From NCBI GenBank assembly GCA_963674785.1, contig OY771555.1, positions 74,511 to 138,510 on the forward strand: a stretch of 64,000 bases of DNA, given 5' to 3'. The DNA comes from Caldisericia bacterium (GTDB lineage Bacteria; Caldisericota; Caldisericia; JAAYUI01). The translations under genes were made by a program, and so were the position numbers. The notes beneath the pieces were generated by a model. It searched no databases. It saw only the letters and a list, made by a program, of their open reading frames with translations, and had not been told where the DNA came from. Numbering within the stretch: position 1 is the stretch's first letter; the number at the start of each line of letters is the position of its first letter. Positions 18,656 to 64,000 of the stretch are shown one piece after another.

Positions 18656-18663
18656 CTAAAAAC

Positions 18664-28127: not shown

Positions 28128-28150
28128 TTCTCAAGGAAGGAGGAAACCAT

Positions 28151-35312: not shown

Positions 35313-35465
35313 GAAGCTTTTAACATTTATTTATCAGTTGATGGTTTTTTAGTTGGCTAGCTCTAACAAATTTGGTGAAAAAGGGTTAACTGTCAGTTAA
35401 TCCAATGTGTAATTAGTCTATTGACCAATTCAGGCAAAAGGCTAATCTAGTTGGTGGAGGTCAAT

Positions 35466-38400
35466 ATGAAAAAACTTGTTGCTGCCGTCATTTGTATATT
35501 ATTAGTCGCAGGGCTTGTCTTTATTTCCCCTGTTGTTTTTGCAGAAGAAATAAATGTAATTGATATTAATGCTACCATATCAGATGGAAGTGTGACTCTT
35601 AACTGGGAAAAGCAAACTGCATCCACAATCTATGTTTACAGGGATTACTACAAAAATGCTAAACCTGTGGCAACCCTCAACCCAACCGACACAAGCTTTA
35701 CAGAAAGCCCTACTCCTGGTAGCCACACATACTCAGTAATGATTATAGGTCGGGATGGTAGGGTTGCTTGTAGGTCTTCCGTTCTTCCGACATATATACC
35801 TCCAGAGTGTGAATATCCGGACAACACAATGATCAAACTTTGGATTGGCAAAAAAACAATGGGTGTTAACTGTGATACACAAGAAATCGATTCAGAACCA
35901 ATAATCATTCAATCAAACACTTTTGTTTCAATCAGACCAATCATTGAAGCTGTTGGTGGATCACTGGGTTGGGATGGAGCAACAAAATCTGTTATCGTAA
36001 ACCTTCCACCACATTCTGTTTCACTTTCAATTGGCAAAAACACCGCAACAGTTGATGGCAAAGAGGTGCAAATAAACAGCAATCCAGAAATCGTTCCCGT
36101 AATTGTAAATGGAAGAACAATGCTTCCATTCAGATTTATCGCTGAGAACCTCGAAGGAACAGTTGAATGGATCGGCTCTGAAAAGAGAATTGATATTCTT
36201 TTCCCGCTTCAGGAAAAAGTATCAGTAAGACGTGCAATGTCAGGAATGACATCTCTTGGAAGAAACTCACTTGGTCAGATAGTCAGTCTGAAAGATGTTG
36301 AAGAATTAGAAACAGACAATCCTATCGATGAGTTTCTAAAAGGGGCAAAGGTTTTAACTGGTACTGACTCAATTGAAGCAGTCCCGATTCTTGAATACAA
36401 GGACATAATTGGAAGACCAAACAGTTTGACAAAACTGTCTGACTGGCTTGGAATGTACAACCAAAACCTCAAAGCATACAAAATTTCATATAAATCAAAT
36501 CTGAGCAGTTTGAATGACTTTGATTCTGTTATTCTTCTAACCTCTGATGGTGAAATAGTTGATGCAACCTTTATCACTGCAGGTTTTGATTTCAATATTG
36601 AAAGTTCAGATACCGAAAAAATGAACTATCAAATACTGTTACCAAGAGCATCGGTAAAAAACAAAAAGTACACATGGAATATTGAATCAATCCCTATGAC
36701 TGCAAGCAGCAAAGTCACATCACTCAACTTAGATGAACCACCAGGATGTGACACATGTTCAAGGACAGTTGGCAATGCCAATCTATCTTTTGAAAACAAA
36801 GCAACAGAAAACCTCAGTCAAGCAAACAACATGTCGCTTGTTTTGCTTTCTTCTCTTGTTGATTTTTCCTTTGATATATCAGGAGGAGAAGGATTGACAT
36901 TATCACTTGATGAAGGTTGTGGATTCTTTCCGGGAACGTCATGCCCAAGCATTGATGGAGAGTTTGCTGAGTTTCAGCTTTCTATGGTTGACAATAGACC
37001 CCCAAACAACACATCAACAGTGAATAACTGCTCAGAAGCAGTAAAAGGCACATTCAACATAGCTGAATCAAACTCAAAATGGAACAGAGCAAGTGATGGA
37101 AAGTCTACAAATGAAGATTTCTTATCAATAAATATTGAGGATTCTTCAAGACCACGTTCAATTTCATTGGACATAAAAGAAAATGACCATATGTTCGGTT
37201 TCTTTAAGGTTTTTGCTCTGCCAAAAAGTATTTCTCTTTCACCCAATCCAATGCTGGATATCACTGTGCCAATCCTGAATTCGCCATCCGGAAAACAAGT
37301 TGGTAGATTCAGAGTCTCTGGAACATCTCAACTAAAAATTTCTTTCCCAAATGGAAAACCATCCTGCTGGTTTGGAGATGAAGACAAAGATGGTCAAACT
37401 AACCTCTCCATTAACACGATCGCAATTGATAAATCCACAGATTTTGACTGTCCTTGTGGTGAGACAAATGCCTTTGATTACGTTAATTATGAGATTATTC
37501 AAGAAGAGGGAGTAGGTTCAGTAATATTTGATGTCAGAGTGAACTCCGATATAGCATTTGTCCCAAAAAATGCAGAGGTTTCAATAGAGTTAATTAGGAA
37601 TGACGAGGTTGTCTCAACCCATGATGTATCCTACTCTGACCCATCACTTAATATAACTGATGACACAGCAGAGGCTGGAGAGTTTTATAAATACTGTTTA
37701 AAACTGATTTCAAATAGTGTTGAGATTGAAAACTATTGCATTGAAGAAGAACTTCAACCCAATCCATGGCTATTCTTCATGGAATGGAGCGATGTTCCAA
37801 ACGGAAGAGTTTTAGAAAAAAGCATCGAGAGAGGGTCAGAAGAAAGTTTTGATGTTATCATACACAACGTTTCAGAAAACGTTTTCAAAGCAGAACTCAG
37901 CATAAATAATCCAAATTACAAGTGGGATGTTTCATTTGTTGATAAAGAATCTCCGACATGGATTGAACTCAAACCCGGGCAAAAGGAAACAGTAACGCTA
38001 ACAATTTACCCAGACTCATCAATACCATCTGGGGAGAAAAACAACGTTGAAGTTGTTTTGAAAAGCGGACTCCAAACTATGGTTCTTACAGGCATTTTTT
38101 CTGTTTCTGCCCCAAGCTGCTCATATGAGATATCTTGGGTTTCTGGTGGAACAGGTATGGGAAATGATATTAGTCCAGGAACAGAGTTAATAGAAATCTT
38201 TACGATCAAAAACACAAGTAGCCAACAGCAACAATTTATTTTGGACTACAGCACCGAACAAGACAACACAAATACATTCTGGAATATAGGATTTAAAGAT
38301 CAGAGGAAGGGTGGGAAAATCTTCCTTGGGTCAGACGAAGAAACACAGGTGGCATTTGCAGTTTCATCGCCACAGGGAGCCAAAGATGGTGAGACTTTAA

Positions 38401-39545
38401 AAATAAAGATTGAAGTTCTAGGATGTGGAGAGTCAAAAGAGCTATCATGGTCAATAACAAACAAATTAATGGAGTGTTCATTTGAACTCGAGTGGGCTGA
38501 AAAGAAATCAACAACAAGAACAACCGTTGAAACAGACTCAAGATGGAACGAGACTTTTTATGTTTGGAACTTCAGTGATTATGAGGGAGTGTTTACTCTC
38601 GATGTCGAAGTAGAAGGAGAACCGATTGTTGCATATTTAGATAACTATGATCTAAAGATTAAAAGTGGCACATACGAAGAGGTCACGATCACATTCCAGA
38701 TTCACGCGAAAGCAAAAGTTGGTGATTCCTCTGTAAATATCGTTGCAACATGCGGTAAAACAACTCAAACCTTAGATCGAAGATTTTTAATTAAGAAAAA
38801 GAGTGACTGCCAATTTGAATGTTACTTCCTTGAATCTGAAACAAGTAACCTTGGTAAAGACATGGAAGTTGGCAAAGAAGTTCAGATACCTATTTATGTC
38901 AAAAATAATAGCGTTGATCCACAGCTTTTCTCGGTAAAGGTTGTAAGAAGTGAAACGGATTGGGCATCTGGTCTTGTTGAAGGAAAAGTCAGACAGACAT
39001 TCAATCTCGGATCGGGTGGTGACACAAGCAATCTTGTTGTATGGATAAGAGGTGAAGACGACACAAAACCCGGAGATACATGTAAGCTTTCGATTGTAAT
39101 AACTGCGTGCAACACCAAAAAAACAATCGTGTGTAACATCACATGTGTTGAAAAAACAGAACTTGATGTTGAACTTGAGCAAGAAATCACGTTCAGAAAC
39201 TGGAAAAAGAACGGTATGCTTGAGGTTGGGAATCGAATTGAGTTTAACAGAAAAGGAAGCGGTAACATCCTAACACAAAATTACAAGATCAAATTCTTTG
39301 ATGCCCAGCAAGATAATGCATACATCGGTGAACTTGATGAAGTCAGACTCGTAATGTCAATCTACAAAGGTAGACCACAATGGGATTTCAAATACTATGT
39401 CTCGACTGAAATAATAGAAAAACTGAAATCATTTGACAGCAAAAAGATTAAAGCAAAGATGACTATCTCAATGCTTTATACTCACGATGATGGGACTACA
39501 GATGTAGTAAAAAAAGAACTTGAAACCATATTTGAGCTTCCATAA
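35466..39545 (+). CDS. Large secreted cell-surface protein (about 1360 aa) with a copper-amine-oxidase-N-like domain near the N-terminus. The start is at 'MKKLVAAV'; the track ORF starts at 35451.
   Basis: Signal peptide. Residues about 120-270 read 'SIRPIIEAVGGSLGWDGATKSVIV...NGRTMLPFRFIAENLEGTVEWIGSEKRIDI', which is Cu_amine_oxidN1-like. The remainder is repetitive beta-rich sequence. Confidence 0.7.
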   Translation: MKKLVAAVICILLVAGLVFISPVVFAEEINVIDINATISDGSVTLNWEKQTASTIYVYRDYYKNAKPVATLNPTDTSFTESPTPGSHTYSVMIIGRDGRVACRSSVLPTYIPPECEYPDNTMIKLWIGKKTMGVNCDTQEIDSEPIIIQSNTFVSIRPIIEAVGGSLGWDGATKSVIVNLPPHSVSLSIGKNTATVDGKEVQINSNPEIVPVIVNGRTMLPFRFIAENLEGTVEWIGSEKRIDILFPLQEKVSVRRAMSGMTSLGRNSLGQIVSLKDVEELETDNPIDEFLKGAKVLTGTDSIEAVPILEYKDIIGRPNSLTKLSDWLGMYNQNLKAYKISYKSNLSSLNDFDSVILLTSDGEIVDATFITAGFDFNIESSDTEKMNYQILLPRASVKNKKYTWNIESIPMTASSKVTSLNLDEPPGCDTCSRTVGNANLSFENKATENLSQANNMSLVLLSSLVDFSFDISGGEGLTLSLDEGCGFFPGTSCPSIDGEFAEFQLSMVDNRPPNNTSTVNNCSEAVKGTFNIAESNSKWNRASDGKSTNEDFLSINIEDSSRPRSISLDIKENDHMFGFFKVFALPKSISLSPNPMLDITVPILNSPSGKQVGRFRVSGTSQLKISFPNGKPSCWFGDEDKDGQTNLSINTIAIDKSTDFDCPCGETNAFDYVNYEIIQEEGVGSVIFDVRVNSDIAFVPKNAEVSIELIRNDEVVSTHDVSYSDPSLNITDDTAEAGEFYKYCLKLISNSVEIENYCIEEELQPNPWLFFMEWSDVPNGRVLEKSIERGSEESFDVIIHNVSENVFKAELSINNPNYKWDVSFVDKESPTWIELKPGQKETVTLTIYPDSSIPSGEKNNVEVVLKSGLQTMVLTGIFSVSAPSCSYEISWVSGGTGMGNDISPGTELIEIFTIKNTSSQQQQFILDYSTEQDNTNTFWNIGFKDQRKGGKIFLGSDEETQVAFAVSSPQGAKDGETLKIKIEVLGCGESKELSWSITNKLMECSFELEWAEKKSTTRTTVETDSRWNETFYVWNFSDYEGVFTLDVEVEGEPIVAYLDNYDLKIKSGTYEEVTITFQIHAKAKVGDSSVNIVATCGKTTQTLDRRFLIKKKSDCQFECYFLESETSNLGKDMEVGKEVQIPIYVKNNSVDPQLFSVKVVRSETDWASGLVEGKVRQTFNLGSGGDTSNLVVWIRGEDDTKPGDTCKLSIVITACNTKKTIVCNITCVEKTELDVELEQEITFRNWKKNGMLEVGNRIEFNRKGSGNILTQNYKIKFFDAQQDNAYIGELDEVRLVMSIYKGRPQWDFKYYVSTEIIEKLKSFDSKKIKAKMTISMLYTHDDGTTDVVKKELETIFELP

Positions 39546-41331: not shown

Positions 41332-44300
41332 TTAGTAGTATCTGGTCATTGTTATGAGTCGTTCTTCACCATTCCAGGCGACCTCAGCTCCAAGTGATTC
41401 AGCGATGAATCTAAATGGAACCATCGTTCTTCCGTTTACTATTTCTGGAGGCTGGTCAATTGTCACAAACTCACCATTAAGTACTGCAGTTTGCTGGCCG
41501 ATAACCATCGACAGATTGATGTCTTCAAGTTGAACTGTGACCCTTCTTGCGGTTTGATCCCACCCTACCTCAGCTCCGAACGCTTGAGAGATAGCCCTCA
41601 CTGGCACAAGTGTTCTGTTTGCAGAAGATATGTATGGAGCAGTATCAAGCATAACAATCTCACCATCAACAAGCATGATCTGATTATCAATTTTCAGTTC
41701 GATAGTCTTTATCCTGTATCCCCACACTTCAATATCTGATTTTGATTCATTACCAATTTTATCAGTTGCAACATAATCAAATTTATTGCTTCCGATATTA
41801 ATTGGAATGACAACTTCATTGGTTCCCTCAAGCAGTTCTAAGGTCTCACCAGCAATCACGAATGTTACATCTTCACTTACTGTTACGGTGATTGTTGCTT
41901 CTGTTTTATCAACAGTATCACGCTTGAGTGGAGGAATAATTTTCACATATGGAGGAGTTGTGTCTCTTGTGATAACAACGGTCATTTCTGTTTTTGTACC
42001 AACAGGGTTGAATGATGCCACAACAAATTCATTCTTGCCTTCGACAAGGTCAACATTTACAAAGAAGCTCCCATCAGCACCTACACTTACAGGCTTTCCA
42101 TCAACTGAAAGTGACGCATCGGGTGTTGTTTTACCCTTTAATGTCATATCGGTTTCCCTTGTGAGTTCCTCATACTCCTCAAATTCAATAAATGGAGCCT
42201 GTGACGAGGAAACAACATCTATGACTTCGGGATTCACAGTTTTGTATTCACCAAGAAGTCTGATTACAATTTGTCCTGGTTTGCTTGGTAAAACATCAAA
42301 CTCAGCTTGTCCTTCAGAATTTGTCTCAGCCTCCATACTTACACCTGCACCTTTAACAGATACAGCAACACCAACAAGAGGTTTTCCGTATGAACCGGCA
42401 TACTCGACATTTACAGTCACTTTCTTTAGAAGTCCAGGATAGAACACACCGGAATGCTCAACACTTATTACAGCACCTTTGACGGTGTCAAATGTGAGGA
42501 CATCACCGGACTCAATGAGGTCGTCACTGAAACTGCTCTTTGCTTTATATTTCAGAGTTACATTTGATTCACCAATTGAATTTGGCTCAAAGTGAATTGT
42601 AGCCATTGTTGAAAGCTCATCATCTGGGTCACGTTTTGTTTCTTCAGTTACTTTCTTGTTTCCTGTAATCGACGATACCTCAACAACTGAACCCTCTTTT
42701 ATTGGGTCAGTTTCAAGTGGAGAACTCGGAGTGACAGTCACCTGAAGAACATTGTCAGCCTTATTGACAAGGTCATAATTAGAGGTACTAAGGAACTCAG
42801 AACCCCACTCCTGACCAGTCTTATCTTCGAAGATTTTAATTACTGGTTTCTGGATTGGGACATATGTTGTTGTTGGGGAATCCCAATCGAGAGCAAACTG
42901 TCCATCAGGTGAGTATCTGAGTTCTGGGTTGAATGAAACTGCCTGTGATCGAGGTGTTTCACCTGCTACATCACCATTGATGACGGATGCCTTATTTGCT
43001 CCAACAAATCCACCAAGTCCAAATTCTGAATCAGCAAAGATATAGAAGGTAACCGAACCATTTTTATCGATATTCAATGAATCCTTATAATCGACCATGC
43101 CGTCACCATTGAAGTCAGAGACATAATAGTTACCAGCGAGCTCTGAATTATAGATACATCCAGCTCCCCACTTCTCAAGATCCATTGATGTACCATCCAT
43201 CTCTGTTCCTGTTTTGTAGTAGGTACTCATTGCAGCAACATCTTTCATGTCAGCACTTACATTATCTGTAACCGAGACTGCAAGGTGGTTGAACACTTCG
43301 ACATCATCATCAGTTGCAGTTTTGACAAGGAATGGTGTAAATCTTGTGAAGTCAGTTGCAGAACCAATTTTGCCTGGAAGATTTGAAACGCCCTTAATAA
43401 GATTTCCTTCGGCATCTCTGATTGTTGCTTTGATCTTATATACCCTTGAATCAAATGCAGTCATAACGGCATCTGGATCTTCTGGATATTTCATTGTTTC
43501 GTGGTGTTCCTGGGCAAGGTTTATGATTTCATAACTGACTGTTGGTCTGCCGACCTTTATTGATGCAACACCCCATCCACTATAGTCAGGTGTTACGATC
43601 TTGAGATTTATTTCACCCTCATCGTTTGCAACGAATCCTTCGAATTTATAGATTCCCTTGCTTGCCTGTGAGAAGTCATATTTGATTGGTGAGAATCCGA
43701 AAAGTGATTCATTATCAGAAAGAGTGCTGTTCTCATTTGTGATAGATGTTGTTGTCCAATAATACTCGTTTGTTCTGTCCGGTCGTTTCTGTGTGATGTA
43801 ATTTGCAGCCTCTTCGTCAGTTAGTTTTCCATTCTTTGTAAGGTCAACTGGGCTTCCACTATCATCCGTGATTGTAAGGGTCAATGGTGTTTCAGGATCG
43901 ACAATTTCAGGGGAGACACCCGATGTAAGGATTGGAGGACTTACGTTAACTGTAATATTTGGGTCAGATGGAATTCCTCCACCTGCCATTGGTCTCATTG
44001 TTATTTCACCTGCAAGATAAACCTCATGTGAATAATACTTGCTGTTACCTGGAACCTGCCATAGTGGTGTGAAGCTTCGGTCATTATTATCATCACCATA
44101 CTTGTATGCACAAAGATGGATTGGAAGTTCCTCTTTTTCAGAGATCAGGTGGTCTCCATTGAAGTCCCAACCATAGTCTTCAATTCGACATCCATTATCC
44201 AGACTCATATCAAAGATATATCTACCGTTATTCCTCTGATAAGTTCTCGCATCAATTATTCCACCAACCCACGTGTTTGTAGCAATATTATATGATCCGA

Positions 44301-47300
44301 TAAGCTCTGTTTCATAAGCATCAAATGATATTCTTCCATCACCATTGAGGTCATCATATTTTGAGTAAGCACCACTTACCCCAGAACCAACCGAAGATGT
44401 TGGGCCACCTGTAATCCAACCATCACCGGCACCCTCAAGAAGAGTTGAGCCATCTTGATATCTGACTCCTCTATCCTGCCAAGCAAAAACAAGAGCATCG
44501 TTACATTCTCTATTCTGCTGAATATCTTCCCATTCTGTAATTTTTACATCAACAATATTATCTGAACCGAGTCCTATTGTTGGAGATGCACCTTCAATAT
44601 GAAGTCCATGAACAGGAATTCCAACGATTCGGTATTCCTGACAGCAGTCTTCCCAATATTTCTTTGTTCCATTTGCAAGCTCAACCATAATTGAGAGGAC
44701 ACCCTTATCTACAGGGATAATTTCATCGAACACAAAAACTGAGGAACTTAACATGGAGTAATCAAGATCTCCATGCTGAACAAGTCTCTGATTTGCAGTA
44801 CTATATGTATATCTATCCTGGAATCCTGGATTGATTATTCTCGTATAATCGGCAGAACCGAGTTCATAGTCACTCCAGTTTGTAGTGTCAACTGTAATTC
44901 TTCCAGAATAATCATATCTTATCGGAGCACCTCTAAGACCATTGTATTCATTATCTTCATAATCCATTGGAAGCTCAGGGATTTTAAATGGGCCGCTGAT
45001 CTCTATTCTTCTGATCTTGTGGTCGCTATCTGTTGCCGTAAATGAAAGAGGTTGCCCAAGTCCATCCATAAGCATAAAGAAGATTCCGTAATCTGTAAGT
45101 GGCGTAAACTCTGTTCCCATCTTATAATACATGTCACCCCAGATTGCAGGATAAGCACTTCTTCCATCGCCCATAGTGCTTCCCTGAATTCGAAGTGGAT
45201 GGGTCTGACCACCAGGATAACTCCTAAACTCTCTGACAAGGTTCGATAAAATTGGGTCATATGGTGTTTGAATCTGAGGAGTTGGCACATCAAATCTTGA
45301 AAGTGCACCAGTTCCAGCAGTGTAATTGACATTTGAATACTGAAGAGCATGGTCTACAACTCTGAATTCAACAAAGTTCACATCAGGGTCTGTGATGTTC
45401 CCACCGCCACCAGATGATCCACCACCGCTTGAACCACCACCAGATGATCCACCGCCTGTACTTGTTGAGTCTTTGCCGATTATGAATATTCCGCAGTAAT
45501 CTGTTCCTTCGGCATTGGATGGAACAAAATATGGAGGATGAGTGATTGTGCTGTTATAATCCCAGAGAGCATTTTCAGTATGCACTCTAACATTCAAGTT
45601 AGACGATGTGTTTCTTGGGTAAACCGCGATTGGAAGCATTCCGCCGCTTTCAGCCCAAGGTGATGTTTTGTATGTTGATACAAAGGTCGGTACCCCATAT
45701 GTTTCGATCAATGGATATGTAGCACCATCAAATGGCCCCCAACTGTCACCCTTTGTGACGACACCTAACTCATATCTGAAACCTGATCCGCAAATATCAC
45801 ATTCAGCAAACCTACCAGAACAATCAAGATCCTCAAATGAGTCTGTTGCACGTTCTCCTTCAAGCGGTCCAGTTACAGTATCTTCAGGGTCAACAGCACC
45901 AATTGCTCCCAGCCCAGTTGTTGGGCTTTGGTTATCAGCCCATTCCCACACAAGGAAGGTTCTATCGTCATTAACCTGAACAATATATCTGTTTGGACCA
46001 CTTCCTGCAGTAAACATCCAGTCAACTCCAGCACCATTAGCATTATATGTCGCAATGATATTGCCGGCATTTGGTGTTGTTGAAATAGGAACTCCGTTCA
46101 AGTCGTTAACATCATATGGATTATCCCAATCCTTCAATGTGAGAGACATGTTTGGGTATCTGATACTGATATTCTGCAAACAAGAAATATTGCATTCAAA
46201 ATCGATTGGTTCTGGTTTTACTTCAAACTCTTTTACGTAATAACAGTCATAGTTATTTGGAATGGTTGTATTACCAAGAATGCTTGGTGATGGAATCTCC
46301 CAGTAACCATAGGCTCCATCGGTAGGGCCACCCCATCCAAGATCGGCAGGGTTTCCAGTTCCCTTTTCATAATATACTTCAATAATATATGGATGGATGA
46401 TTCCAAACTCATCACATGAACCCTCGTATGGGGTTATTTGAACCTGAAGCTCTGATTTCTTATTTGACAGAGTTCCTGCGACATTTCTATGTCCTGATGC
46501 ATCAGTTAAAACAACAAATGCAAGTTTATTTTCCTCTGGGGCGGGATTCATTGTGATTTTTACGGAAGATGTCTGCTCAACCTGGAATTCTTTATCAACA
46601 GTAATACTTATTGGTGCTTCACCCGGGAGAACCTCAAGATCAAGAGCTCTTGGGTTCCCATTTTTTCCCATTGTAAAACCAGTTACAACGAAATTTTCAA
46701 TGTATGTTTCGGGTCCGGCAACAACACTACCACAAAAATATGTCTTTCCTGATCTTGAGACATTTGAAAGCCTTGTGTCACCAACGCTTACAGTATTTGA
46801 AAGGTCTGCATCATAATACATCCACTCAGTCTCATCAAATTGAACATCATAGTCGACATCAAAATATCCTGTGTTGCTAAATGGTGAAAGAATAAAGCCA
46901 ACATCAGCATCACCAGTTGTTACAATAGAGCCTGCTGGGAATGTAACGATTACACCGCCAACCTGAACTGTGATTGTCGTCATCCTAACATCACCATTGT
47001 TGACAATATGATTGCCAAATGGATCTTGACCTGTATTTACATTTGTGTAGATACCTTCACCACAACCATAACCAACTCCACCCTCATCATGATAATAGAA
47101 ATCTGATGGGAAAGGAGTGAGCGACAAACCAGTATCAGTATCAGTTGTTCCACTTGCCGATGCTCCGATAAATGCCTCACAAGCCTCCTCTGCTTTATAG
47201 TCATCGGTGAGGTTTTGGGCAAAACAACTTCCTGATGGGTTGTTGATATTATTTACACCATCATCTCTGAATATCTCAACACCGAGCCATCCTCTATACT

Positions 47301-48144
47301 CAGGATTGATGCTGTAGAACGTTGTTGCAGGAACCTGGAAATCTGAAGCTGTTGCACCAAGAACGGTTGACTTTTGGATTCTCTGAGCTCTGCTTTTGGT
47401 TGGTTCATTTGGGTTATAAACTGATGCAGCGGTCACAGCTGGCATAACACCTTCCCAGATATCTGTCTCAACCGAGATATTGAATTTTGAGCTTGAATCG
47501 CATGATGCCCTGATTACGTCTGCAAGGATAAGTGCATCACCATCACCATTCATATCAACATTTCCGATTTTCATGCAGCGACCTGAGAAATCATGTGGGA
47601 ATGTATACGGTCCATTTACATTACCAAGTCTTGTAAACCAGTACCCCTCATCATGAAAGAAGTTGACATAATCACCAACAACATATGGCCCCATTGTGTT
47701 GTTTGATGAAATTGTGTCCTGTTTGAAATTGTTTTCACGACACTCACCTGGTGGGTCTGGTGTATCTCTTTCATATGGATTGTGGAAGTAACCATCTGGG
47801 TCAAACCATATTCTTCCATTTGAATCCAAGATACAACACATTTTATCCTTTTCTGTTGATTGTCCGCCAGCAGGAACAACAGTCAGATAAACGATTGACC
47901 AATAGAGAGGGGTTCCAGGCATAGTGTTTCCCTGTCTTCCCCACCATGTTCCGCTTCTGACCCATGGAACCTGGCTTCCACCAGTAAGGGTCTGTCCTTG
48001 TCTATCTTGTCCAAGTGGAATCCACCTGGTGATAGCAACAAGTTTATTTTCCGTTGCAGCGGAAACTTCTTCAATTTGAACAAATGCTGCAAACGCTGAC
48101 AGTGCCAGCATTATAGATAAGCTAACTGCCAAAATTTTCTTCAT
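41332..48144 (-). CDS. Giant secreted surface protein (about 2270 aa) with two C-terminal copper-amine-oxidase-N-like domains. The start is at 'MKKILAVSLSIM'.
   Basis: Signal peptide. Internal Gly/Ser linker 'GGGSSGGGSSGGGSSGGGG'. The C-terminus has 'LDTAPYISSANRTLVPVRAISQAFGAEVGWD...NGRTMVPFRFIAESLGAEVAWNGEERLI'. GC content looks higher than in neighbouring genes. Confidence 0.75.
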   Translation of the reverse strand: MKKILAVSLSIMLALSAFAAFVQIEEVSAATENKLVAITRWIPLGQDRQGQTLTGGSQVPWVRSGTWWGRQGNTMPGTPLYWSIVYLTVVPAGGQSTEKDKMCCILDSNGRIWFDPDGYFHNPYERDTPDPPGECRENNFKQDTISSNNTMGPYVVGDYVNFFHDEGYWFTRLGNVNGPYTFPHDFSGRCMKIGNVDMNGDGDALILADVIRASCDSSSKFNISVETDIWEGVMPAVTAASVYNPNEPTKSRAQRIQKSTVLGATASDFQVPATTFYSINPEYRGWLGVEIFRDDGVNNINNPSGSCFAQNLTDDYKAEEACEAFIGASASGTTDTDTGLSLTPFPSDFYYHDEGGVGYGCGEGIYTNVNTGQDPFGNHIVNNGDVRMTTITVQVGGVIVTFPAGSIVTTGDADVGFILSPFSNTGYFDVDYDVQFDETEWMYYDADLSNTVSVGDTRLSNVSRSGKTYFCGSVVAGPETYIENFVVTGFTMGKNGNPRALDLEVLPGEAPISITVDKEFQVEQTSSVKITMNPAPEENKLAFVVLTDASGHRNVAGTLSNKKSELQVQITPYEGSCDEFGIIHPYIIEVYYEKGTGNPADLGWGGPTDGAYGYWEIPSPSILGNTTIPNNYDCYYVKEFEVKPEPIDFECNISCLQNISIRYPNMSLTLKDWDNPYDVNDLNGVPISTTPNAGNIIATYNANGAGVDWMFTAGSGPNRYIVQVNDDRTFLVWEWADNQSPTTGLGAIGAVDPEDTVTGPLEGERATDSFEDLDCSGRFAECDICGSGFRYELGVVTKGDSWGPFDGATYPLIETYGVPTFVSTYKTSPWAESGGMLPIAVYPRNTSSNLNVRVHTENALWDYNSTITHPPYFVPSNAEGTDYCGIFIIGKDSTSTGGGSSGGGSSGGGSSGGGGNITDPDVNFVEFRVVDHALQYSNVNYTAGTGALSRFDVPTPQIQTPYDPILSNLVREFRSYPGGQTHPLRIQGSTMGDGRSAYPAIWGDMYYKMGTEFTPLTDYGIFFMLMDGLGQPLSFTATDSDHKIRRIEISGPFKIPELPMDYEDNEYNGLRGAPIRYDYSGRITVDTTNWSDYELGSADYTRIINPGFQDRYTYSTANQRLVQHGDLDYSMLSSSVFVFDEIIPVDKGVLSIMVELANGTKKYWEDCCQEYRIVGIPVHGLHIEGASPTIGLGSDNIVDVKITEWEDIQQNRECNDALVFAWQDRGVRYQDGSTLLEGAGDGWITGGPTSSVGSGVSGAYSKYDDLNGDGRISFDAYETELIGSYNIATNTWVGGIIDARTYQRNNGRYIFDMSLDNGCRIEDYGWDFNGDHLISEKEELPIHLCAYKYGDDNNDRSFTPLWQVPGNSKYYSHEVYLAGEITMRPMAGGGIPSDPNITVNVSPPILTSGVSPEIVDPETPLTLTITDDSGSPVDLTKNGKLTDEEAANYITQKRPDRTNEYYWTTTSITNENSTLSDNESLFGFSPIKYDFSQASKGIYKFEGFVANDEGEINLKIVTPDYSGWGVASIKVGRPTVSYEIINLAQEHHETMKYPEDPDAVMTAFDSRVYKIKATIRDAEGNLIKGVSNLPGKIGSATDFTRFTPFLVKTATDDDVEVFNHLAVSVTDNVSADMKDVAAMSTYYKTGTEMDGTSMDLEKWGAGCIYNSELAGNYYVSDFNGDGMVDYKDSLNIDKNGSVTFYIFADSEFGLGGFVGANKASVINGDVAGETPRSQAVSFNPELRYSPDGQFALDWDSPTTTYVPIQKPVIKIFEDKTGQEWGSEFLSTSNYDLVNKADNVLQVTVTPSSPLETDPIKEGSVVEVSSITGNKKVTEETKRDPDDELSTMATIHFEPNSIGESNVTLKYKAKSSFSDDLIESGDVLTFDTVKGAVISVEHSGVFYPGLLKKVTVNVEYAGSYGKPLVGVAVSVKGAGVSMEAETNSEGQAEFDVLPSKPGQIVIRLLGEYKTVNPEVIDVVSSSQAPFIEFEEYEELTRETDMTLKGKTTPDASLSVDGKPVSVGADGSFFVNVDLVEGKNEFVVASFNPVGTKTEMTVVITRDTTPPYVKIIPPLKRDTVDKTEATITVTVSEDVTFVIAGETLELLEGTNEVVIPINIGSNKFDYVATDKIGNESKSDIEVWGYRIKTIELKIDNQIMLVDGEIVMLDTAPYISSANRTLVPVRAISQAFGAEVGWDQTARRVTVQLEDINLSMVIGQQTAVLNGEFVTIDQPPEIVNGRTMVPFRFIAESLGAEVAWNGEERLITMTRYY
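45401..45457. repeat. Coding microsatellite: an imperfect 15-nt tandem repeat encoding the (GGGSS)n linker
   Basis: 'ccaccgccaccagatgatcc accaccgcttgaaccaccaccagatgatccaccgcc'. Confidence 0.7.
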
Positions 48145-48211
48145 CGTATTTCTCCTTATCCATATTTCAGGATTGTTTTGAAACAAATACGATGTTTTTA
48201 CGCTTAAAGTT

Positions 48212-51345: not shown

Positions 51346-53511
51346 CTACGGTGAGAAAACCATCCTTACAGTTCTTGTATCTCCGTCCCATGAAACATCA
51401 GCACCGAAGGCTTCTGCAATTGCTCTGAATGGAACCATCGTTCGGCCATCTTTTATCTCTGGAGGTGTTGAAATTGACCTTAGTATACCATCAACCTCAT
51501 ACTCAGTTTTTCCAACCCAGAGAACAATCGATTTGTCAAATCTTTCAATAACAATTTTCTTTTCTTCACCAATCCACTGTACTTTTGCTCCGAAAGTTTC
51601 TGAAATAAATCTCAGAGGGACAAGTGTTCTTCCTTTGCTTGAAATATATGGAGCAACATCAAGTTGTATTGGTCGGAAATTCACATATGCAATCGGATTA
51701 CCAATTGTCATCGCAATTTCAATTTTCGGTTCTGTTGCAATCTTTACACCAACAGAAACCTGTTGACAAACCTCATTTTGAGTTGAAATCATGAGTCTTC
51801 CAACGGCTTCAGTGCCAGCTGGCACCCTTGATGCATTAACAGTTATTTTTAGAATTGCTTTTTTTCCAACAGAGGTAAAAGTTATCGGCTCAACATCAAT
51901 CCATCTGTCTTCACCCATAACCATTCCAGAAACTTCGTCATCGGTATCAAAAGTAATCTGGATAAGTTGGCTTTTTTCTTCACCACGTTCAATAAACCCA
52001 AAATCAATCTCTGTTGGTGCTACATCCATACAAGCTGGGGCTGGTGTGACAACCTTCCACCTAATAACTACATTTGTATCACCACCGTTACTCTTGATTT
52101 TTAGAAGTGCCTGATGGTTTCCATACTCAAGTCCGGATGGGTCAAGTTTAAGTCTTATTCTTCTATCGCTACCATTGCTGATACCCATAAAATCTGTTGG
52201 GTTGATGGATATATGATTGTCTTCACATGAAAGGTCGCCTTCAAGTTCTGACTCAAACTCATCATTCCTTTTGTTTATGATTGATATGTCTTTTGTTGGG
52301 GTTGAACCAAGTTCAACAACACCAAAATCAACCTCTACTGGCTCAACACCGAGAATAGGACCGGGTGTAAAAGCTTGAACCGTTCCATTCCAGGTACCAA
52401 CATAAACTGCATCATTGTAAATTACTGGAGTCGCTTGAACAATAGAACCTAAATCTTCCTTCCAAACCTCATTGCCTGTTCTCCACTCAAGACAATACAG
52501 ATGATTATCGTCTGAACCAAAATAGACATGGTCACCACCGATAACAGGTGAAGAGTAATTCCAACTCTCTGTAAAAAAATCCCCCCATACTTTTTCGCCA
52601 CTTTCCTGATAGCAGCATCTCACTTTACGGCTACCTGAACAGATAATCACTTTATCTTCTACTAGAGCTGGGGTTCCAAAAATTTTATCGCCAATATCTG
52701 ATGCCTCTAAATGCCATTCAAGAGTTCCATCATCTGCATCCAAACAATAAAAACCTGTCTCATTTGTGCCAAAAAACACCCTTCCGTCTTTAACCGATGA
52801 AGAGGATGTTACTGCAGACTTTGCTTCAAAATGGTTTTTCCAGGCTGAAGTTCCATCTTTCGCTTTGTAAGCATGCAAAAAACTTGAATGTGAACCACAG
52901 AGGATAAAATCCTTTTCAGCATAGTATGTTGGAGATGCCTCAATCATACCTCCAGTTTTTTGAACCCAAACCTGAGTACCATCATATAGATCTACACAAT
53001 AGAGCCTTCCATCATACGAACCAAAATATACCTTGTCCTCAATAACGAGAGGGGATGATCTGATTGCACCATCAGTATGAAATTTCCAAACCTCATCACC
53101 GTCTTGAAGGTCTGATTTTGCCTGCCTTAGAGCAATACAATACATATTCCCACTGTCAGAACCACACAGGACAACTTCCCCCGCGATTGTTGGCGAGCTT
53201 TGAACAATATCACCAGTTGGGTATGTCCAGTTAATTCTAAATGAACCCGTATCATAACAGTATATGTTTGTATCATGCGAACCGACAACCGCATATCTTT
53301 CAGTTATCGCAATGGATGATCTGATTGAATTTGTAGCCTGATATGCAATTCTTGTCAGAAATGGGGGCGATGCTTTATTTGTCGTGTACCCAGTACGTGC
53401 TGGATCATGATTCAACATCAGCCAATCCTCGCTCTTTTCTTCCTCGGCAAAAACAATCCCAGAAAACAAAAGAACAAACGCCATGATCGTGATTAATAGT
53501 TTTCTCATCAT
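51346..53511 (-). CDS. Secreted PQQ-like beta-propeller repeat protein with C-terminal copper-amine-oxidase-N-like domains. The start is at 'MMRKLLITIM'; the track ORF extends to 53625.
   Basis: Repeated 'Y..D..G...W' propeller blades ('NIYCYDTGSFRINWTY', 'RLYCVDLYDGTQVWVQ', 'HLYCLEWRTGNEVWKE'). The C-terminus has 'LDVAPYISSKGRTLVPLRFISETFGAKVQWIGEEKKIVI...DGRTMVPFRAIAEAFGADVSWDGDTRTV'. Confidence 0.75.
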   Translation of the reverse strand: MMRKLLITIMAFVLLFSGIVFAEEEKSEDWLMLNHDPARTGYTTNKASPPFLTRIAYQATNSIRSSIAITERYAVVGSHDTNIYCYDTGSFRINWTYPTGDIVQSSPTIAGEVVLCGSDSGNMYCIALRQAKSDLQDGDEVWKFHTDGAIRSSPLVIEDKVYFGSYDGRLYCVDLYDGTQVWVQKTGGMIEASPTYYAEKDFILCGSHSSFLHAYKAKDGTSAWKNHFEAKSAVTSSSSVKDGRVFFGTNETGFYCLDADDGTLEWHLEASDIGDKIFGTPALVEDKVIICSGSRKVRCCYQESGEKVWGDFFTESWNYSSPVIGGDHVYFGSDDNHLYCLEWRTGNEVWKEDLGSIVQATPVIYNDAVYVGTWNGTVQAFTPGPILGVEPVEVDFGVVELGSTPTKDISIINKRNDEFESELEGDLSCEDNHISINPTDFMGISNGSDRRIRLKLDPSGLEYGNHQALLKIKSNGGDTNVVIRWKVVTPAPACMDVAPTEIDFGFIERGEEKSQLIQITFDTDDEVSGMVMGEDRWIDVEPITFTSVGKKAILKITVNASRVPAGTEAVGRLMISTQNEVCQQVSVGVKIATEPKIEIAMTIGNPIAYVNFRPIQLDVAPYISSKGRTLVPLRFISETFGAKVQWIGEEKKIVIERFDKSIVLWVGKTEYEVDGILRSISTPPEIKDGRTMVPFRAIAEAFGADVSWDGDTRTVRMVFSP

Positions 53512-53721
53512 GAAAAATACAATAGCATAAAAAAAATGTTTAATCAAATTTTTATGAAGGATTTCTCCCCATGAAACCAAAAACCAAATAGGACTCATTA
53601 GCAAGAAGATTTCTTCAAATTCCAAAGCACACTCGCTGAATAATTATACATAATATTAAATATTAAACAAGTATCAATCTCTTTGTTGTTTAAAAATGTC
53701 GAAAACATAATATTAGTTGCA

Positions 53722-56869: not shown

Positions 56870-57316
56870 TCAGGCTATCTGATTTGTTCCCACTTCATCA
56901 CCCAGATCATCATCTTCAACGTCGAAATCATCTTCGATTGACCAATCTTCTTTTTCCTCTTCCTCGTCGGTCTCATCCGATACATAGGCAAGAAAATCAT
57001 CAACCAATTCCTCCGCTTTTGAGGCGTTCTGAGCAAGCGTTACAACCAAAACACTGTCGCTGGAAGTGTCTTTTAAAAGCTCTCTTGCAGGCGAATCAAA
57101 ATCAACATACGCTGCAGAAATATCGTTGTTTCTTAAAAACTCAACAAGAGCTTGAGCCTCTGATAAAGACTCTGCGGTGTACACAACCACCGGAACAATG
57201 TCTGATTCTAATTCAGATTCATCATAGAGAGTGATATCCTCATCGCACTCTTGACATATCTCGTCTTCAAGATTGATAAAAGACCCACAACTCGGACACA
57301 CATATATCCCTTTCAT
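56870..57316 (-). CDS. Acidic zinc-ribbon protein (148 aa)
   Basis: 'CPSCGSFINLEDEICQEC' is a zinc ribbon, followed by an Asp/Glu-rich body. Confidence 0.5.
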   Translation of the reverse strand: MKGIYVCPSCGSFINLEDEICQECDEDITLYDESELESDIVPVVVYTAESLSEAQALVEFLRNNDISAAYVDFDSPARELLKDTSSDSVLVVTLAQNASKAEELVDDFLAYVSDETDEEEEKEDWSIEDDFDVEDDDLGDEVGTNQIA

Positions 57317-59673: not shown

Positions 59674-60903
59674 ATGGAAAGCAGAATAAAAGATATTCGT
59701 CTCGCCCCAAAGGGACACCAAAAAATTGAATGGATCAAACCAAGAATGCCCGTTCTCACAGGGCTTGTAGATGAACTATCTGGGAAGTTTTCAGGAGTTT
59801 ATATCTCGATGTCAATTCATCTTGAAGCAAAAACCGCATACATGGCACAAATCATGGCAAAATGTGGAGCAAAAGTTGCCATTTGTGGTTCAAACCCACT
59901 CTCAACCCAAGATGATGTTGTAGCGGCACTTGCTGAGTCGGGAGTTACTGTTTTTGCTCATCATGGTGAAACAGATGCAGACCATGCAAAAAACATAGAA
60001 TCAACACTCTCAATTAACCCTGACCTTGTGCTTGATGATGGCGCAGACTTGATTGCAACAATCTCAGATACCAAGAGAGAACACAGAGTACTTTGTGCAA
60101 CCGAGGAGACAACATCAGGAATAACAAGGATGAAAGCGCTTGCAGCAGCAGGAAAACTTCCATGCCCAGTGATTGCTGTAAATGATGCCCAATCAAAATA
60201 TCTCTTTGATAACAGGTATGGAACAGGTCAATCATCATGGGACGGAATAATGAGAACCACGAACCTCACGGTTTGTGGAAAAACCGTTGTTATTGGTGGA
60301 TATGGTTGGGTTGGACGAGGTCTTGCAATGAGGGCATCTGGAATGGGTGCCAGAGTCATCGTCACAGAGGTTAATCCAATCCGTGCGATGGAAGCGCATT
60401 TTGATGGATTCAGAGTGATGCAGATGATTGAAGCCGCGCCACTTGGAGATATCTTCATCACCGCAACTGGGGACACAAACATCGTCGATACAAGACATTT
60501 TGAGAGCATCAAAAATGGTGCAATTTTATCAAACGCCGGACACTTTGATGTTGAAGTCGAAATGAATGAACTGAATGCACTTGCAATCTCAAAAAGAATC
60601 GTCAGGGATAATATCACTGAGTACACTCTTCCGTCTGGTAAAGTGCTCAACGTGCTTGGTGAGGGAAGACTTGTAAATCTTGCCTGTGGTGATGGTCATC
60701 CAGCCGAGATAATGGATTTATCATTTGCTCTTCAAGCTCTCTCATTACTTCACGGGCTTGAAAACGGAAAAAACATGAGCAAAGATGTCCACAAGGTTCC
60801 TGAGGCAACCGATGAAAGAGTCGCGAAACTAAAGCTTAAATCTCACGGAATCAATATTGATAAACTTACTGAAAAACAGAAGAAATACCTTGCCTCCTGG
60901 TAG
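59674..60903 (+). CDS. ahcY: Adenosylhomocysteinase (short, archaeal-type)
   Basis: 'MPVLTGLVDE...SMSIHLEAKTAYMA...VVIGGYGWVGRGLAMRASGMGARVIVTEVNPIRAMEA...NAGHFDVEV' includes the NAD-binding GxGxxGxG motif and other family motifs. Confidence 0.9.
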   Translation: MESRIKDIRLAPKGHQKIEWIKPRMPVLTGLVDELSGKFSGVYISMSIHLEAKTAYMAQIMAKCGAKVAICGSNPLSTQDDVVAALAESGVTVFAHHGETDADHAKNIESTLSINPDLVLDDGADLIATISDTKREHRVLCATEETTSGITRMKALAAAGKLPCPVIAVNDAQSKYLFDNRYGTGQSSWDGIMRTTNLTVCGKTVVIGGYGWVGRGLAMRASGMGARVIVTEVNPIRAMEAHFDGFRVMQMIEAAPLGDIFITATGDTNIVDTRHFESIKNGAILSNAGHFDVEVEMNELNALAISKRIVRDNITEYTLPSGKVLNVLGEGRLVNLACGDGHPAEIMDLSFALQALSLLHGLENGKNMSKDVHKVPEATDERVAKLKLKSHGINIDKLTEKQKKYLASW

Positions 60904-60993: not shown

Positions 60994-61398
60994 ATGGCAA
61001 AACTTGAATACGTTGAAGGAATCGGAGAAAAATACGCGGATAAGCTCAGGAAAGCTGGTGTTGCATCAACTGATGCGTTACTTGAGATGGGATCAACACC
61101 AAAGGGAAGAAAAGAAATCGCAGAAAAAGCAGACATCAGCGACAAACTGGTTTTAGAATGGGTCAACCACGTTGACCTCTTCAGAATTAAGGGTGTTGGT
61201 CAGGAATATGCAGACCTTCTTGAAGAAGCAGGTGTTGACACAGTTCCAGAGCTTGCTCAGAGAAACGCAGAAAACCTCACCAAAAAAATGGAAGAAGTAA
61301 ACGAGCAGAAAAAACTTGTCAGAAAACTTCCAGAACTTAAAATCGTTGAAGACTGGATAGCACAAGCAAAAGAGCTTCCAAGAGTGATTAAGTACTAA
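60994..61398 (+). CDS. DUF4332-like tandem helix-hairpin-helix protein
   Basis: Two repeats of 'VEGIGEKYADKLRKAGVASTDALLE' and 'IKGVGQEYADLLEEAGVDTVPELAQ'. An RBS 'aaagggg' lies upstream. Confidence 0.5.
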   Translation: MAKLEYVEGIGEKYADKLRKAGVASTDALLEMGSTPKGRKEIAEKADISDKLVLEWVNHVDLFRIKGVGQEYADLLEEAGVDTVPELAQRNAENLTKKMEEVNEQKKLVRKLPELKIVEDWIAQAKELPRVIKY

Positions 61399-61426
61399 GC
61401 ACAACATCAAATAAATAAACTCAGAG

Positions 61427-61458
61427 CCCAGCTTGTTGCAAGCTGGGTGTTTTATTTT
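61427..61458 (+). terminator. Rho-independent terminator
   Basis: 'cccagcttg-ttgc-aagctggg' followed by tgttttatttt. Confidence 0.7.
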
Positions 61459-61474: not shown

Positions 61475-61978
61475 TTATAGCTCTTTATAAATCTCCCATA
61501 CTTTACCTTGTGATTCTCCGATAGTTCTCCTGATCCCCATATAAAACAGTGAGTTCATATGAGGTTCTATTTCTATATCTTGAGTGCTTCCCACAAACTC
61601 AATCGGATCAAAAAAAGAGATGCTATTGTGTCCATCTTCGAGTACTAGTTTGAAATAAGTATGGTGAGAAAATCTTGTTATTGGACATGTTTTTATTACT
61701 GCATCAAATTGTGGATTTCTAAAAACCCGCTTCGATAAAATCCCTTTTACAATAATTTGTGGCTCATTATCAACATATTCAAGTGTTATTTTCATCCTCA
61801 TAAAAGCTCGTGACGCAGCATAGAAAAGAATCGCAACAATAAACACAGCAAAAATGGACATATGAAATCCATCGGTACCAAAAGTTATCAACACAACAAA
61901 CAAAATTAATAAGCCAAACACAAGCATCCATGCCTGTCTTGCAGGGTCATTTAAAACTGTACATTCAATTCTTTTCAT
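61475..61978 (-). CDS. 2TM plus bPH-like small membrane protein (tandem paralogue 4)
   Basis: Two N-terminal TM helices, then 'KITLEYVDNEPQIIVKGILSKRVFRNPQFD', which parallels the three upstream paralogues. Confidence 0.55.
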   Translation of the reverse strand: MKRIECTVLNDPARQAWMLVFGLLILFVVLITFGTDGFHMSIFAVFIVAILFYAASRAFMRMKITLEYVDNEPQIIVKGILSKRVFRNPQFDAVIKTCPITRFSHHTYFKLVLEDGHNSISFFDPIEFVGSTQDIEIEPHMNSLFYMGIRRTIGESQGKVWEIYKEL

Positions 61979-61982
61979 ATTT

Positions 61983-62624
61983 TCAGCCCTCTTTAAATGG
62001 ATTGAATTCTTTTTCTTCTGTTTGCTTCAATCTTTCTATCAAATCATTGCTCGAATCAATTTTTCGTTTTGTTGTTTTTATTTCTGCATCAGGGTCTTTT
62101 TCGAAGCTTTCAAGAAGCCATAATGTTTCCCACATAAGATGTTTGCTTTCACCAATTGCAGTGTATGTATCTAAAAATGATGTTTTCTGCTCCAAATAAT
62201 AAGTATCATCCTTATCAATATCAGTTGATTTAACAGACATAGTCAATGATCTGAATTCGGTATAAATCATAAGGTAATCATTTATTCTTGAGTACCGGTT
62301 GTTTATTCTTATTAATTGTTTGCCCATACAAAATTGAAATGGCCACACAATAACAGTTTTCGAGAGCAAGCCTTTTGCTGTTATTCTGGGTTTACCAAGT
62401 TCAAAATCGAGAATCACTCTTATCCTAAAGACAAACCAGGCTATGAGAAATGTGCACCCAAATATGCCAAATAGAAGGAGTACAATTGGGGTGTTGGAGT
62501 TAAAAATATTTGTTGTGACACCGAGATAAATAAATACAAAGAATTCAAAGAAAAGAAAAAAGATAATGGCAGGATTATTCAAAAACTGCATTCTTATTTT
62601 GATATTTCGGCTTTCCTGATTCAT
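61983..62624 (-). CDS. 2TM plus bPH-like small membrane protein (tandem paralogue 3)
   Basis: 'ILDFELGKPRITAKGLLSKTVIVWPFQF'. C-terminus '...EKEFNPFKEG'. Confidence 0.55.
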   Translation of the reverse strand: MNQESRNIKIRMQFLNNPAIIFFLFFEFFVFIYLGVTTNIFNSNTPIVLLLFGIFGCTFLIAWFVFRIRVILDFELGKPRITAKGLLSKTVIVWPFQFCMGKQLIRINNRYSRINDYLMIYTEFRSLTMSVKSTDIDKDDTYYLEQKTSFLDTYTAIGESKHLMWETLWLLESFEKDPDAEIKTTKRKIDSSNDLIERLKQTEEKEFNPFKEG

Positions 62625-62727
62625 TTACTATTCTCACTTTGTTTCATCGAAAAAGACTCGATTATAAGCAACCAAAAGAAGGCAGGGTTATTGTTCAGTC
62701 TGCATTTTATCGTTTCCACTGTTCCCC

Positions 62728-63354
62728 CTATTCGTCCTCAACAAATGGTGACTCATAAAATTCTTCCTCAGCATTGTGCTCAATCTTTGAGGGTGTGATA
62801 TTTGTCTTTTTGACATTGAGCTCATTTGTTTTCCAGTCTTCGATTTTTGAAAACAATTCATTCAATCGATATTCATTGTTTCCAACAACATACAACGAAT
62901 CTAAAATACTTGGATTTATCTTTTGCTGCAAATCTGAATCTAGTTCTTCAAGCAAAACCTTAGAAACAATTTTGAAAACGAATGAATTTCTAGAAAAAAC
63001 AGCAAAATGCACATGAGATACTGCGCGTTTCATATATACTCTATTTTCTGATCCCCTTTTATACGAAAACGGCCAAACAAGAATGCTTTTTGAACTTTTT
63101 CCAGCAAAAGTCAAACGTGGTTTGGAAAGTGAAAAATCAAGCGTAAGTACAACTTTAAAGTTCAAATACCCAAGATAAAATACTGCAATAAACAAGGCAA
63201 TAACAAAGACAGTCAAAACTGAAGGTTTATAAAATATGCTGAATTTTGTATAAACACCGAAAACAAAAAAGACGAAAATCTCAATCGCGAGAAATATCTT
63301 TAACGCGAAACCATTTCTGAGTTCCACTTCTATTCTATAATCTTTGTCGGTCAT
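62728..63354 (-). CDS. 2TM plus bPH-like small membrane protein (tandem paralogue 2)
   Basis: 'VLTLDFSLSKPRLTFAGKSSKSILVWPFSY'. C-terminus '...EEEFYESPFVEDE'. Confidence 0.55.
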   Translation of the reverse strand: MTDKDYRIEVELRNGFALKIFLAIEIFVFFVFGVYTKFSIFYKPSVLTVFVIALFIAVFYLGYLNFKVVLTLDFSLSKPRLTFAGKSSKSILVWPFSYKRGSENRVYMKRAVSHVHFAVFSRNSFVFKIVSKVLLEELDSDLQQKINPSILDSLYVVGNNEYRLNELFSKIEDWKTNELNVKKTNITPSKIEHNAEEEFYESPFVEDE

Positions 63355-63950
63355 TATTCCTCACCCACAAACGGATTTTCAAAAACGAAATCCTTTTCAT
63401 CAACTTCTACATTATCTGATTCGGTTTTCGGCTGTTCCTTTGCCTTCAGTTTATCATAAAGGTTCCACACAAAATCTGGGTATGGCTTTATGTTGATTAT
63501 CATTTTGCTATCTTTCTGCCTTATCAGTGATTCTGTCTGAACTCCTTCAATTATTTGATTTGGAGGAAGCCTTTCGAAAAAACAAAATCGTCGATTTTCT
63601 GAATCAGTGATTGCAAGCCTGAAATATACTCCCTCATCTCTTCTTGCAACAATTATCATTTTCCCTTCAAAACGATACGGATAATCTATCTTTGCTTTAA
63701 GAAACCTTCCATTTATGGTGATGTTTAGATCTTTTGAAGTAACTTCCAATTTCACATTGATCAGTTGCAATACTGCATAAATCACATAAATCAGCAGAAC
63801 CGATAAAATCACAATTGCATATATCAATCCATCATCAACATTTGCAAAAATCATAATGATTATTGCTAGAATAAAAACTGCAAAAAACGAGCAACCAACA
63901 AATTTATTCGCTGCCAAAGAATAATTGAAATTACCAGTTTGTTCTTTCAT
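63354..63950 (-). CDS. 2TM plus bPH-like small membrane protein (tandem paralogue 1)
   Basis: 'KLEVTSKDLNITINGRFLKAKIDYPYRFEG'. C-terminus '...DEKDFVFENPFVGEE'. The start overlaps the next gene's stop (ATGA). Confidence 0.55.
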   Translation of the reverse strand: MKEQTGNFNYSLAANKFVGCSFFAVFILAIIIMIFANVDDGLIYAIVILSVLLIYVIYAVLQLINVKLEVTSKDLNITINGRFLKAKIDYPYRFEGKMIIVARRDEGVYFRLAITDSENRRFCFFERLPPNQIIEGVQTESLIRQKDSKMIINIKPYPDFVWNLYDKLKAKEQPKTESDNVEVDEKDFVFENPFVGEE

Positions 63951-64000
63951 TTATCGGATTATTCCTCAAAAGGTGAATCAATTTCAGAAGCTTTTCGTTT

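Follow-up and report, generated by a model that had tools for sequence, protein, structure and literature searches.

A lineage-restricted family of predicted two-helix membrane proteins with a conserved C-terminal [DE]-[SN]-P-F tail in a Caldisericia bacterium

The 64,000-nucleotide stretch of contig OY771555.1 from a Caldisericia bacterium (hereafter the window) carries at one end a tandem array of small genes, G1 to G5, which encode a lineage-restricted and previously unnamed membrane-protein family. Almost all members end in a short tail peptide, [DE]-[SN]-P-F. Comparison of two syntenic loci, L001 from a Joint Genome Institute (JGI) metagenome and L002 from a metagenome-assembled genome (MAG), in each of which both array borders are visible, indicated that recombination alters the copy number and the gene bodies and leaves the helix-and-tail-coding gene ends nearly constant. 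The reading that we tentatively favour is that the family consists of variable membrane modules offering one docking peptide to a common cytoplasmic partner, with a conflict-related setting the most likely one. The array genes of the window are listed below, with the parts of G4 and G2 taken from AlphaFold models.

63959-64000, minus strand: 3' end of G5 (P0010, 195 aa), its last 13 codons, which read KRKASEIDSPFEE before the stop codon; DSPF at 63968-63979.
63354-63950, minus strand: G4 (P0001, 198 aa); ENPF at nucleotides 63369-63380; modelled as an N-terminal strand, a membrane hairpin at about residues 11-61 (nucleotides 63768-63920), a beta-sandwich, a helix at residues 160-171 and a disordered tail.
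62728-63354, minus strand: G3 (P0004, 208 aa); ESPF at nucleotides 62743-62754.
61983-62624, minus strand: G2 (P0002, 213 aa); FNPF at nucleotides 61995-62006; modelled with a membrane hairpin at residues 17-65 and an extra linker helix at residues 192-204.
61475-61978, minus strand: G1 (P0003, 167 aa), the final array gene; ends in VWEIYKEL and a stop codon right behind the C-terminal helix.

An earlier note on this DNA, made from the sequence alone, had placed four minus-strand open reading frames (ORFs) here, and all four were found at its positions. The ATGA overlap that it read at 63354 is instead TAATG, in which the start of G3 overlaps the stop of G4 by 1 nt. Its expectation that the array goes on past the window edge was correct for one more detectable gene, as the end of G5 agrees residue for residue with the C-terminus of P0010, a family member on the same 2,233,174-bp contig. 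The other intergenic distances are 8 nt (G5-G4), 103 nt (G3-G2) and 4 nt (G2-G1), and the tightly packed genes are probably co-transcribed. The GC content of the array is 33%, against 38-40% in its surroundings.

The array proteins are related to each other by BLASTP (E values of 1e-14 for G3-G2, 2e-5 for G2-G1, 5e-3 for G4-G1 and 0.06 for G4-G3), with 18-43% identity between paralogues. A family hidden Markov model (HMM), whose alignment itself contains G1-G4, scores these four proteins at 1e-47 to 1e-60. Both methods bear out the tandem array of diversified paralogues proposed in the earlier note, and the HMM detected no additional copy in the rest of the window, in L001 or in L002. DNA-level repeats and a recent duplication were considered and rejected, only short chance matches being present; because the array lacks such repeats, the duplications are old. 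On these comparisons, G1-G4 are true paralogues, though old and divergent ones. Two subfamilies can be distinguished, one with the signature 'MKKIEG ... PFxYDA ... VWEIYQALEKY' and the other with 'KPRITAKGLLSK ... VWPF'.

The C-terminal helix of the family is followed by a polar, unalignable linker of 12-33 residues and then by [DE]-[SN]-P-F-[VEQLK], as in the tail peptide EEFYESPFVEDE, and in every motif-bearing member the P-F pair sits 1-7 residues from the C-terminus. The motif was found in 11 of the 12 sequences examined and in 10 of the 11 family representatives, in both subfamilies and in every source assembly. The sequence without it is G1, which shares the membrane hairpin and the beta domain with its paralogues and has neither linker nor tail motif. 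Only five columns of the family alignment are invariant or nearly so, and the P and F of the tail account for two of them. Across the three loci (105 kb), 8 of the 9 family ORFs have [SN]PF among their last 12 residues. Of the remaining 529 six-frame ORFs with 60 aa or more, 8 have it too, and most of these eight are non-coding frames. All four synonymous codons (CCT, CCG, CCA and CCC) are used for the tail proline, so selection acts on the peptide and not on the DNA; the possibility that the tail is conserved merely as a DNA recombination signal was rejected on the same variation of codons. The same tail was found on no non-family protein in the 105 kb examined. The sole annotatable SPF ending outside the family in these sequences belongs to a GNAT acetyltransferase (24068-24670, plus strand), which ends in KLSPF; the acidic context is missing, and this ending is probably a coincidence.

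The earlier note had drawn attention to a conserved C-terminal peptide, which is indeed kept in homologues from other genomes, and had suggested a docking tag, an idea that the conservation pattern supports. According to the favoured reading, the tail would act as a flexibly tethered short linear docking motif, through which one shared cytoplasmic partner is brought to the membrane. The variable hairpin and beta domain would give each paralogue its own specificity, be it for a ligand, a client or a sensed factor, and the tail-less G1 could be a non-docking variant. The conflict role may lie in phage exclusion, or in resistance to membrane-acting peptides or toxins.

Hydropathy analysis gave two hydrophobic helices in each of the four window proteins, and the AlphaFold models of G4 and G2 contain them as well, in accordance with the two transmembrane helices previously assigned to each protein. 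The models were built with an 11-sequence alignment and have a predicted local distance difference test score (pLDDT) of 76 for G4 and 78 for G2, with a predicted template modelling score (pTM) of 0.66 each. Common to both is a short N-terminal strand, a membrane hairpin, 6-7 strands, a C-terminal helix and a low-confidence tail. The strand ahead of the hairpin, at residues 3-10 and 9-16 in the two models, is a conserved segment (MKKIEG-like) in which I4 is nearly invariant. A count by eye of the lysine and arginine residues in 12 members gave 38 ahead of helix 1 and 38 directly behind helix 2, with 7 in the loop between them; since the basic clusters flank the hairpin, the positive-inside rule places both termini and the beta domain in the cytoplasm. 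The models thus describe inner-membrane proteins with a hairpin, a membrane-proximal beta-sandwich closed by the C-terminal helix, a flexible polar linker and the tail peptide.

The same architecture could also serve self-assembly, in which the [SN]PF tail binds the edge of the beta-sandwich of a neighbouring paralogue and a hetero-oligomeric membrane ring or chain is formed, with G1 as the terminating member. Such binding would resemble the way in which PTB/PH domains bind peptides, or the beta-sheet extension seen in PH rings of bacteria. In bacteria, PH domains assemble into C5 and C12 rings via edge-strand extension, using the surface on which eukaryotic PH-like domains bind peptides (PMC2817789), and this precedent speaks for the idea. 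So do the packed and overlapping genes, which imply co-expression, the absence of a tail from G1, and a core turn motif of the family, [WY]-P-F, which resembles the S-P-F of the tail. However, Foldseek did not establish a PH fold, the tail is undocked in the monomer models, a copy number of 2 to 5 gives no apparent fixed stoichiometry, and the arrays of L001 and L002 have no tail-less member. We regard self-assembly as unlikely.

The genomic position of the array is constant. In L001 and L002 the order is V-type ATPase operon, DUF1611, array, convergent DUF4332, S-adenosylhomocysteine (AdoHcy) hydrolase, a membrane protein and a BACON-like protein, and the window agrees with this order on its visible (downstream) side. 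The array therefore occupies one fixed chromosomal slot, between DUF1611 and DUF4332-AdoHcy hydrolase, in which the home genome has five copies, L001 three and L002 two. The features at the downstream border in the window are the following.

61426-61448: GC-rich hairpin between the convergent G1 and DUF4332 genes; it looks like a bidirectional terminator that forms the downstream border of the array.
60994-61398, plus strand: DUF4332 gene; conserved, convergent with the array on its downstream side, and a syntenic anchor in all three loci.
59674-60903: AdoHcy hydrolase gene, beyond DUF4332 and away from the array.

L001 and L002 come from very closely related genomes. The proteins encoded by their flanks are mostly 97-99% identical between the two (BACON-like protein, 89%), with nonsynonymous divergence (dN) mostly of 0.006-0.02 (BACON-like protein, 0.065) and synonymous divergence (dS) of 0.08-0.49. 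The array genes differ far more, and the DNA identity between the two loci changes in steps, as given below.

Array gene a: 60% amino acid identity, dN 0.29, dS 1.06.
Array gene b: 43% amino acid identity, dN 0.52, dS 1.43.
Step 1, up to the end of DUF1611: 100% DNA identity.
Step 2, body of gene a: about 55-65%.
Step 3, helix-and-tail-coding end of gene a and start of gene b: 93-98%.
Step 4, body of gene b: about 45-55%.
Step 5, a 630-bp insertion or deletion, which is the whole of gene c, present in L001 only.
Step 6, into DUF4332: 83-100%.

By region, the amino acid identity is 18-38% in the hairpin, 33-56% in the beta domain, 58-73% in the N-terminal strand and 54-94% in the helix plus tail. 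The step profile is that of a recombination mosaic; it bears the mark of cassettes replaced by homologous recombination within a conserved frame, and not of gradual divergence. The two genes next to the array, DUF1611 (7613-8713 in L001, 7973-9073 in L002) and DUF4332 (10729-11136 in L001, 10687-11091 in L002), have the lowest dS, 0.08 and 0.15, while genes farther from the array have a dS of 0.25-0.49; these low values suggest recent recombination of the entire segment between lineages.

A conflict role is considered the most likely one because old alleles have been swapped in a near-identical backbone, as at loci under diversifying or balancing selection. Several results weigh against the favoured reading and its setting. 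No partner of the tail was identified, and in the AlphaFold monomer models the tail has a pLDDT of 42-57 and is docked nowhere, although this is neutral with respect to an external partner. The array genes have dN/dS ratios of 0.28-0.37 between L001 and L002, which shows functional genes under relaxed or diversified evolution, positive selection not being demonstrated. No toxin, secretion, bacteriocin, defence or mobile-element genes adjoin the array in L001 and L002, and no toxin or secretion genes occur on its visible side in the window, the home upstream border lying outside the window. No relatives were found on phages or plasmids, either in a scan of viral contigs or by tblastn of phage and plasmid collections. 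Finally, the sample is tiny, at about 12 proteins from 4-5 assemblies.

The array might also consist of orphan immunity proteins against polymorphic toxins or membrane-acting bacteriocins, which are kept in a variable island. The tandem and diversified genes, their varying copy number and the alleles swapped by recombination would suit such an array. There is also a precedent, as leaderless-bacteriocin operons can encode two-helix bPH proteins (DdE/DdF, YdbS/YdbT-like) that influence both export and self-tolerance (PMC8657885). Against it, L001, L002 and the visible side of the window contain no gene for a toxin, a bacteriocin, an ATP-binding cassette (ABC) exporter, a type VI or type VII secretion system (T6SS, T7SS) or contact-dependent inhibition (CDI), and the array proteins matched no immunity family in Pfam. 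In addition, a cytoplasm-facing domain with a conserved docking tail would be unusual for immunity proteins, and we find this explanation rather doubtful. For the immunity- or effector-type array that the earlier note had in mind, the tandem arrangement, diversification and varying copy number stand, while the gene context gives no support; the adjoining polymorphic toxin or T7SS/T6SS-like effector gene that it proposed to look for is absent from the same regions.

The neighbourhood holds some further variable features. L001 has an insertion at 5529-7612, between the V-ATPase D subunit gene and DUF1611, which is absent in L002 and makes a second variable spot beside the array. It contains two ORFs, of 369 aa and 89 aa, the shorter of which begins like a signal peptide; neither matches Pfam or PADLOC. 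A short-chain dehydrogenase gene (12598-13413, minus strand) lies between the AdoHcy hydrolase and membrane-protein genes of L001 and is absent in L002 and the window. Another conserved protein of 146-148 aa is encoded in the window (56870-57316, minus strand) and in L002 (15103-15543); it has an N-terminal zinc-ribbon-like CxxC...CxxC and a strongly acidic C-terminus, and gave no Pfam or NCBIfam match.

The family is extremely rare. When 1.84 billion representative proteins, which stand for about 15 billion, were searched exhaustively with HMMER, 11 members were recovered, each a singleton at 90% identity. The home contig supplies five of these and Logan contigs of about 1 kb supply two; the other four are split evenly between a 407-kb JGI contig and a 59-kb MAG contig. 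A word-index protein search recovered only the home members and P0005, and a scan with the subfamily alignment found L002 alone in genome contigs and nothing in metagenome contigs. There was no credible family match in Pfam, NCBIfam, PADLOC or PHROGs. A weak Pfam match to DUF6560 (E=4.8e-4, below the cut-off) over the hairpin region was seen in one of the 11 members. Nine family members and the ORFs of the L001 insertion were scanned with the PADLOC-DB defence models and gave no match, and a sequence-profile search of the PDB returned a membrane-helix artefact only (E=0.2).

The beta domain had been described as bPH-like. Its topology in the models is indeed PH-like, and a PH-like fold is plausible from that topology, whereas no bPH Pfam model matched (at E<=1 for the 11 members and at E<=10 for the four window proteins) and Foldseek gave no significant PH match. 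In the PDB and BFVD, Foldseek gave no significant match of any kind. The top match of the G4 model was EROS/CYBC1 (8kei_D), a weak one with E=0.022 and a probability of 0.82; for the G2 model the best E value was 0.12, a PH domain first appeared at rank 22, and the EROS match was not reproduced. The structure paper on EROS describes it as a PH domain that a membrane hairpin splits, and its C-terminus as disordered (10.1101/2023.09.11.557130). Homology to EROS was rejected, as hhalign of the family profile against human EROS, whose sequence was checked against 8kei_D, gave a probability of 0.3% and no similarity. The family members had no Pfam match to Ycf4 or DUF4564.

These results bear on two housekeeping explanations. 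In one, the proteins would be chaperones or scaffolds of the EROS/Ycf4 type, whose hairpin-split PH-like domain assists the assembly of a membrane complex such as the nearby V-type ATPase. The order of elements is the same as in EROS (an N-terminal segment, a membrane hairpin, about six strands, a C-terminal helix and a disordered C-terminal tail), with a beta domain interrupted by the membrane hairpin, a trait seen in the models alone. EROS was the top match of the G4 model, and in L001 and L002 the array is preceded by the V-ATPase operon on the same strand. However, the G2 model, hhalign and Pfam did not bring out this similarity, and 43-60% identity beside flanks of 97-99%, in 2 to 5 copies, would be unexpected for a housekeeping factor. 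EROS and Ycf4 are, in contrast to the family arrays, single-copy conserved assembly factors, and no conserved tail motif is reported for EROS. Such a chaperone function is improbable in our opinion.

The other explanation is that the array encodes ordinary stress or housekeeping paralogues of the YdbS/YdbT bPH type, in which the tail is kept by shared ancestry only. The layout of two helices, a small cytoplasmic beta domain and a C-terminal helix matches that of YdbS (PMC8657885, PMC2817789). Proteins of the bPH_2/YdbS-YdbT family (PF03703), including DdE/DdF of the enterocin DD14 operon, are also small, place two N-terminal membrane helices before a cytoplasmic beta domain capped by a C-terminal helix, and are encoded by paired or tandem genes in one orientation. 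Unlike them, the present family has no bPH model match in its 11 members, a conserved strand ahead of the hairpin, and a long disordered tail with a conserved [DE]-[SN]-P-F, which is kept amid an unalignable linker and with varying codons. In addition, bPH_2 is widespread, whereas only 11 representatives of this family are present in 1.84 billion proteins, its taxonomic distribution is extremely narrow and its locus is a hypervariable cassette. We give this explanation very little weight: the alternative raised in the earlier note, YdbS/YdbT paralogues whose motif is not conserved in homologues, does not fit a family with no bPH match and a conserved motif. Compared with two-helix PH-like small membrane proteins, the strand before the hairpin, the conserved tail and the cassette-type locus are new.

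Several features elsewhere in the window are recorded for completeness. Three large proteins contain a Cu_amine_oxidN1 domain, and they look like surface proteins with a common anchoring module. Their genes and other regions are as follows.

35451-39545, plus strand: 1364-aa protein with a Cu_amine_oxidN1 domain.
41332-48186, minus strand: 2284-aa protein with a Cu_amine_oxidN1 domain and also a Glucodextran_B domain.
51346-53625, minus strand: 759-aa protein with a Cu_amine_oxidN1 domain and PQQ-like beta-propellers.
25763-25838: tRNA-Trp, followed at 27989-28134 by an L10 leader (Rfam RF00557, 54.9 bits), in the secE-nusG-rplKAJL region; the leader marks the DNA as bacterial.
17978-21812, minus strand: three consecutive ORFs of 225, 458 and 591 aa, which lie downstream of a duplicated-domain ThyX gene (21809-23248) and have no Pfam match at E<=1e-5.

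Eukaryotic short linear docking motifs have been studied well, those of bacteria are poorly catalogued. The constant four-residue tail, helix and N-terminal strand amid an otherwise recombining protein make a clean natural experiment for partner finding. An effector as partner would make the family a new modular membrane-sensing system of an uncultured lineage, and a partner within the family itself would make it a new assembly mode for PH-like membrane proteins. The reach of either is limited by about a dozen public proteins and an uncultured host.

Acidic docking peptides are known from hub proteins of bacteria, namely the D-D-D-I-P-F tip of SSB and the D-I-P-x-F C-terminal peptide of FtsZ. 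The family resembles both in having a disordered, drifting linker followed by a conserved short acidic and aromatic peptide with Pro-Phe. It differs from the SSB tip in that 1-7 residues follow P-F, so that the free carboxylate of phenylalanine, which SSB partners need, is missing, and from FtsZ in its spacing, P-F and not P-x-F. Unlike in SSB and FtsZ, the carrier of the motif here is a membrane protein.

For the locus, the closest parallels would be bacteriocin-immunity regions and the orphan immunity islands of polymorphic toxin systems, which are variable cassette loci bounded by conserved genes. A fixed slot, sharp drops of identity at the borders, changes in copy number and deep allelic divergence in a near-identical backbone are shared with them. 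In contrast to these loci, the array is without toxin or peptide genes, its products face the cytoplasm, and its conserved part is the tail-coding 3' end of a gene plus the start of the next gene.

A more specific and quite speculative form of the favoured reading is a modular bacterial conflict system of a new kind, in which recombination-shuffled membrane sensors plug via [DE]-[SN]-P-F into one conserved cytoplasmic effector or adaptor encoded elsewhere, and the helix-and-tail-coding gene ends double as recombination anchors for cassette exchange. Such a system would be the prokaryotic counterpart of the adaptor docking by short linear motifs known from eukaryotes, as in the pairs NPF-EH and NPxY-PTB.

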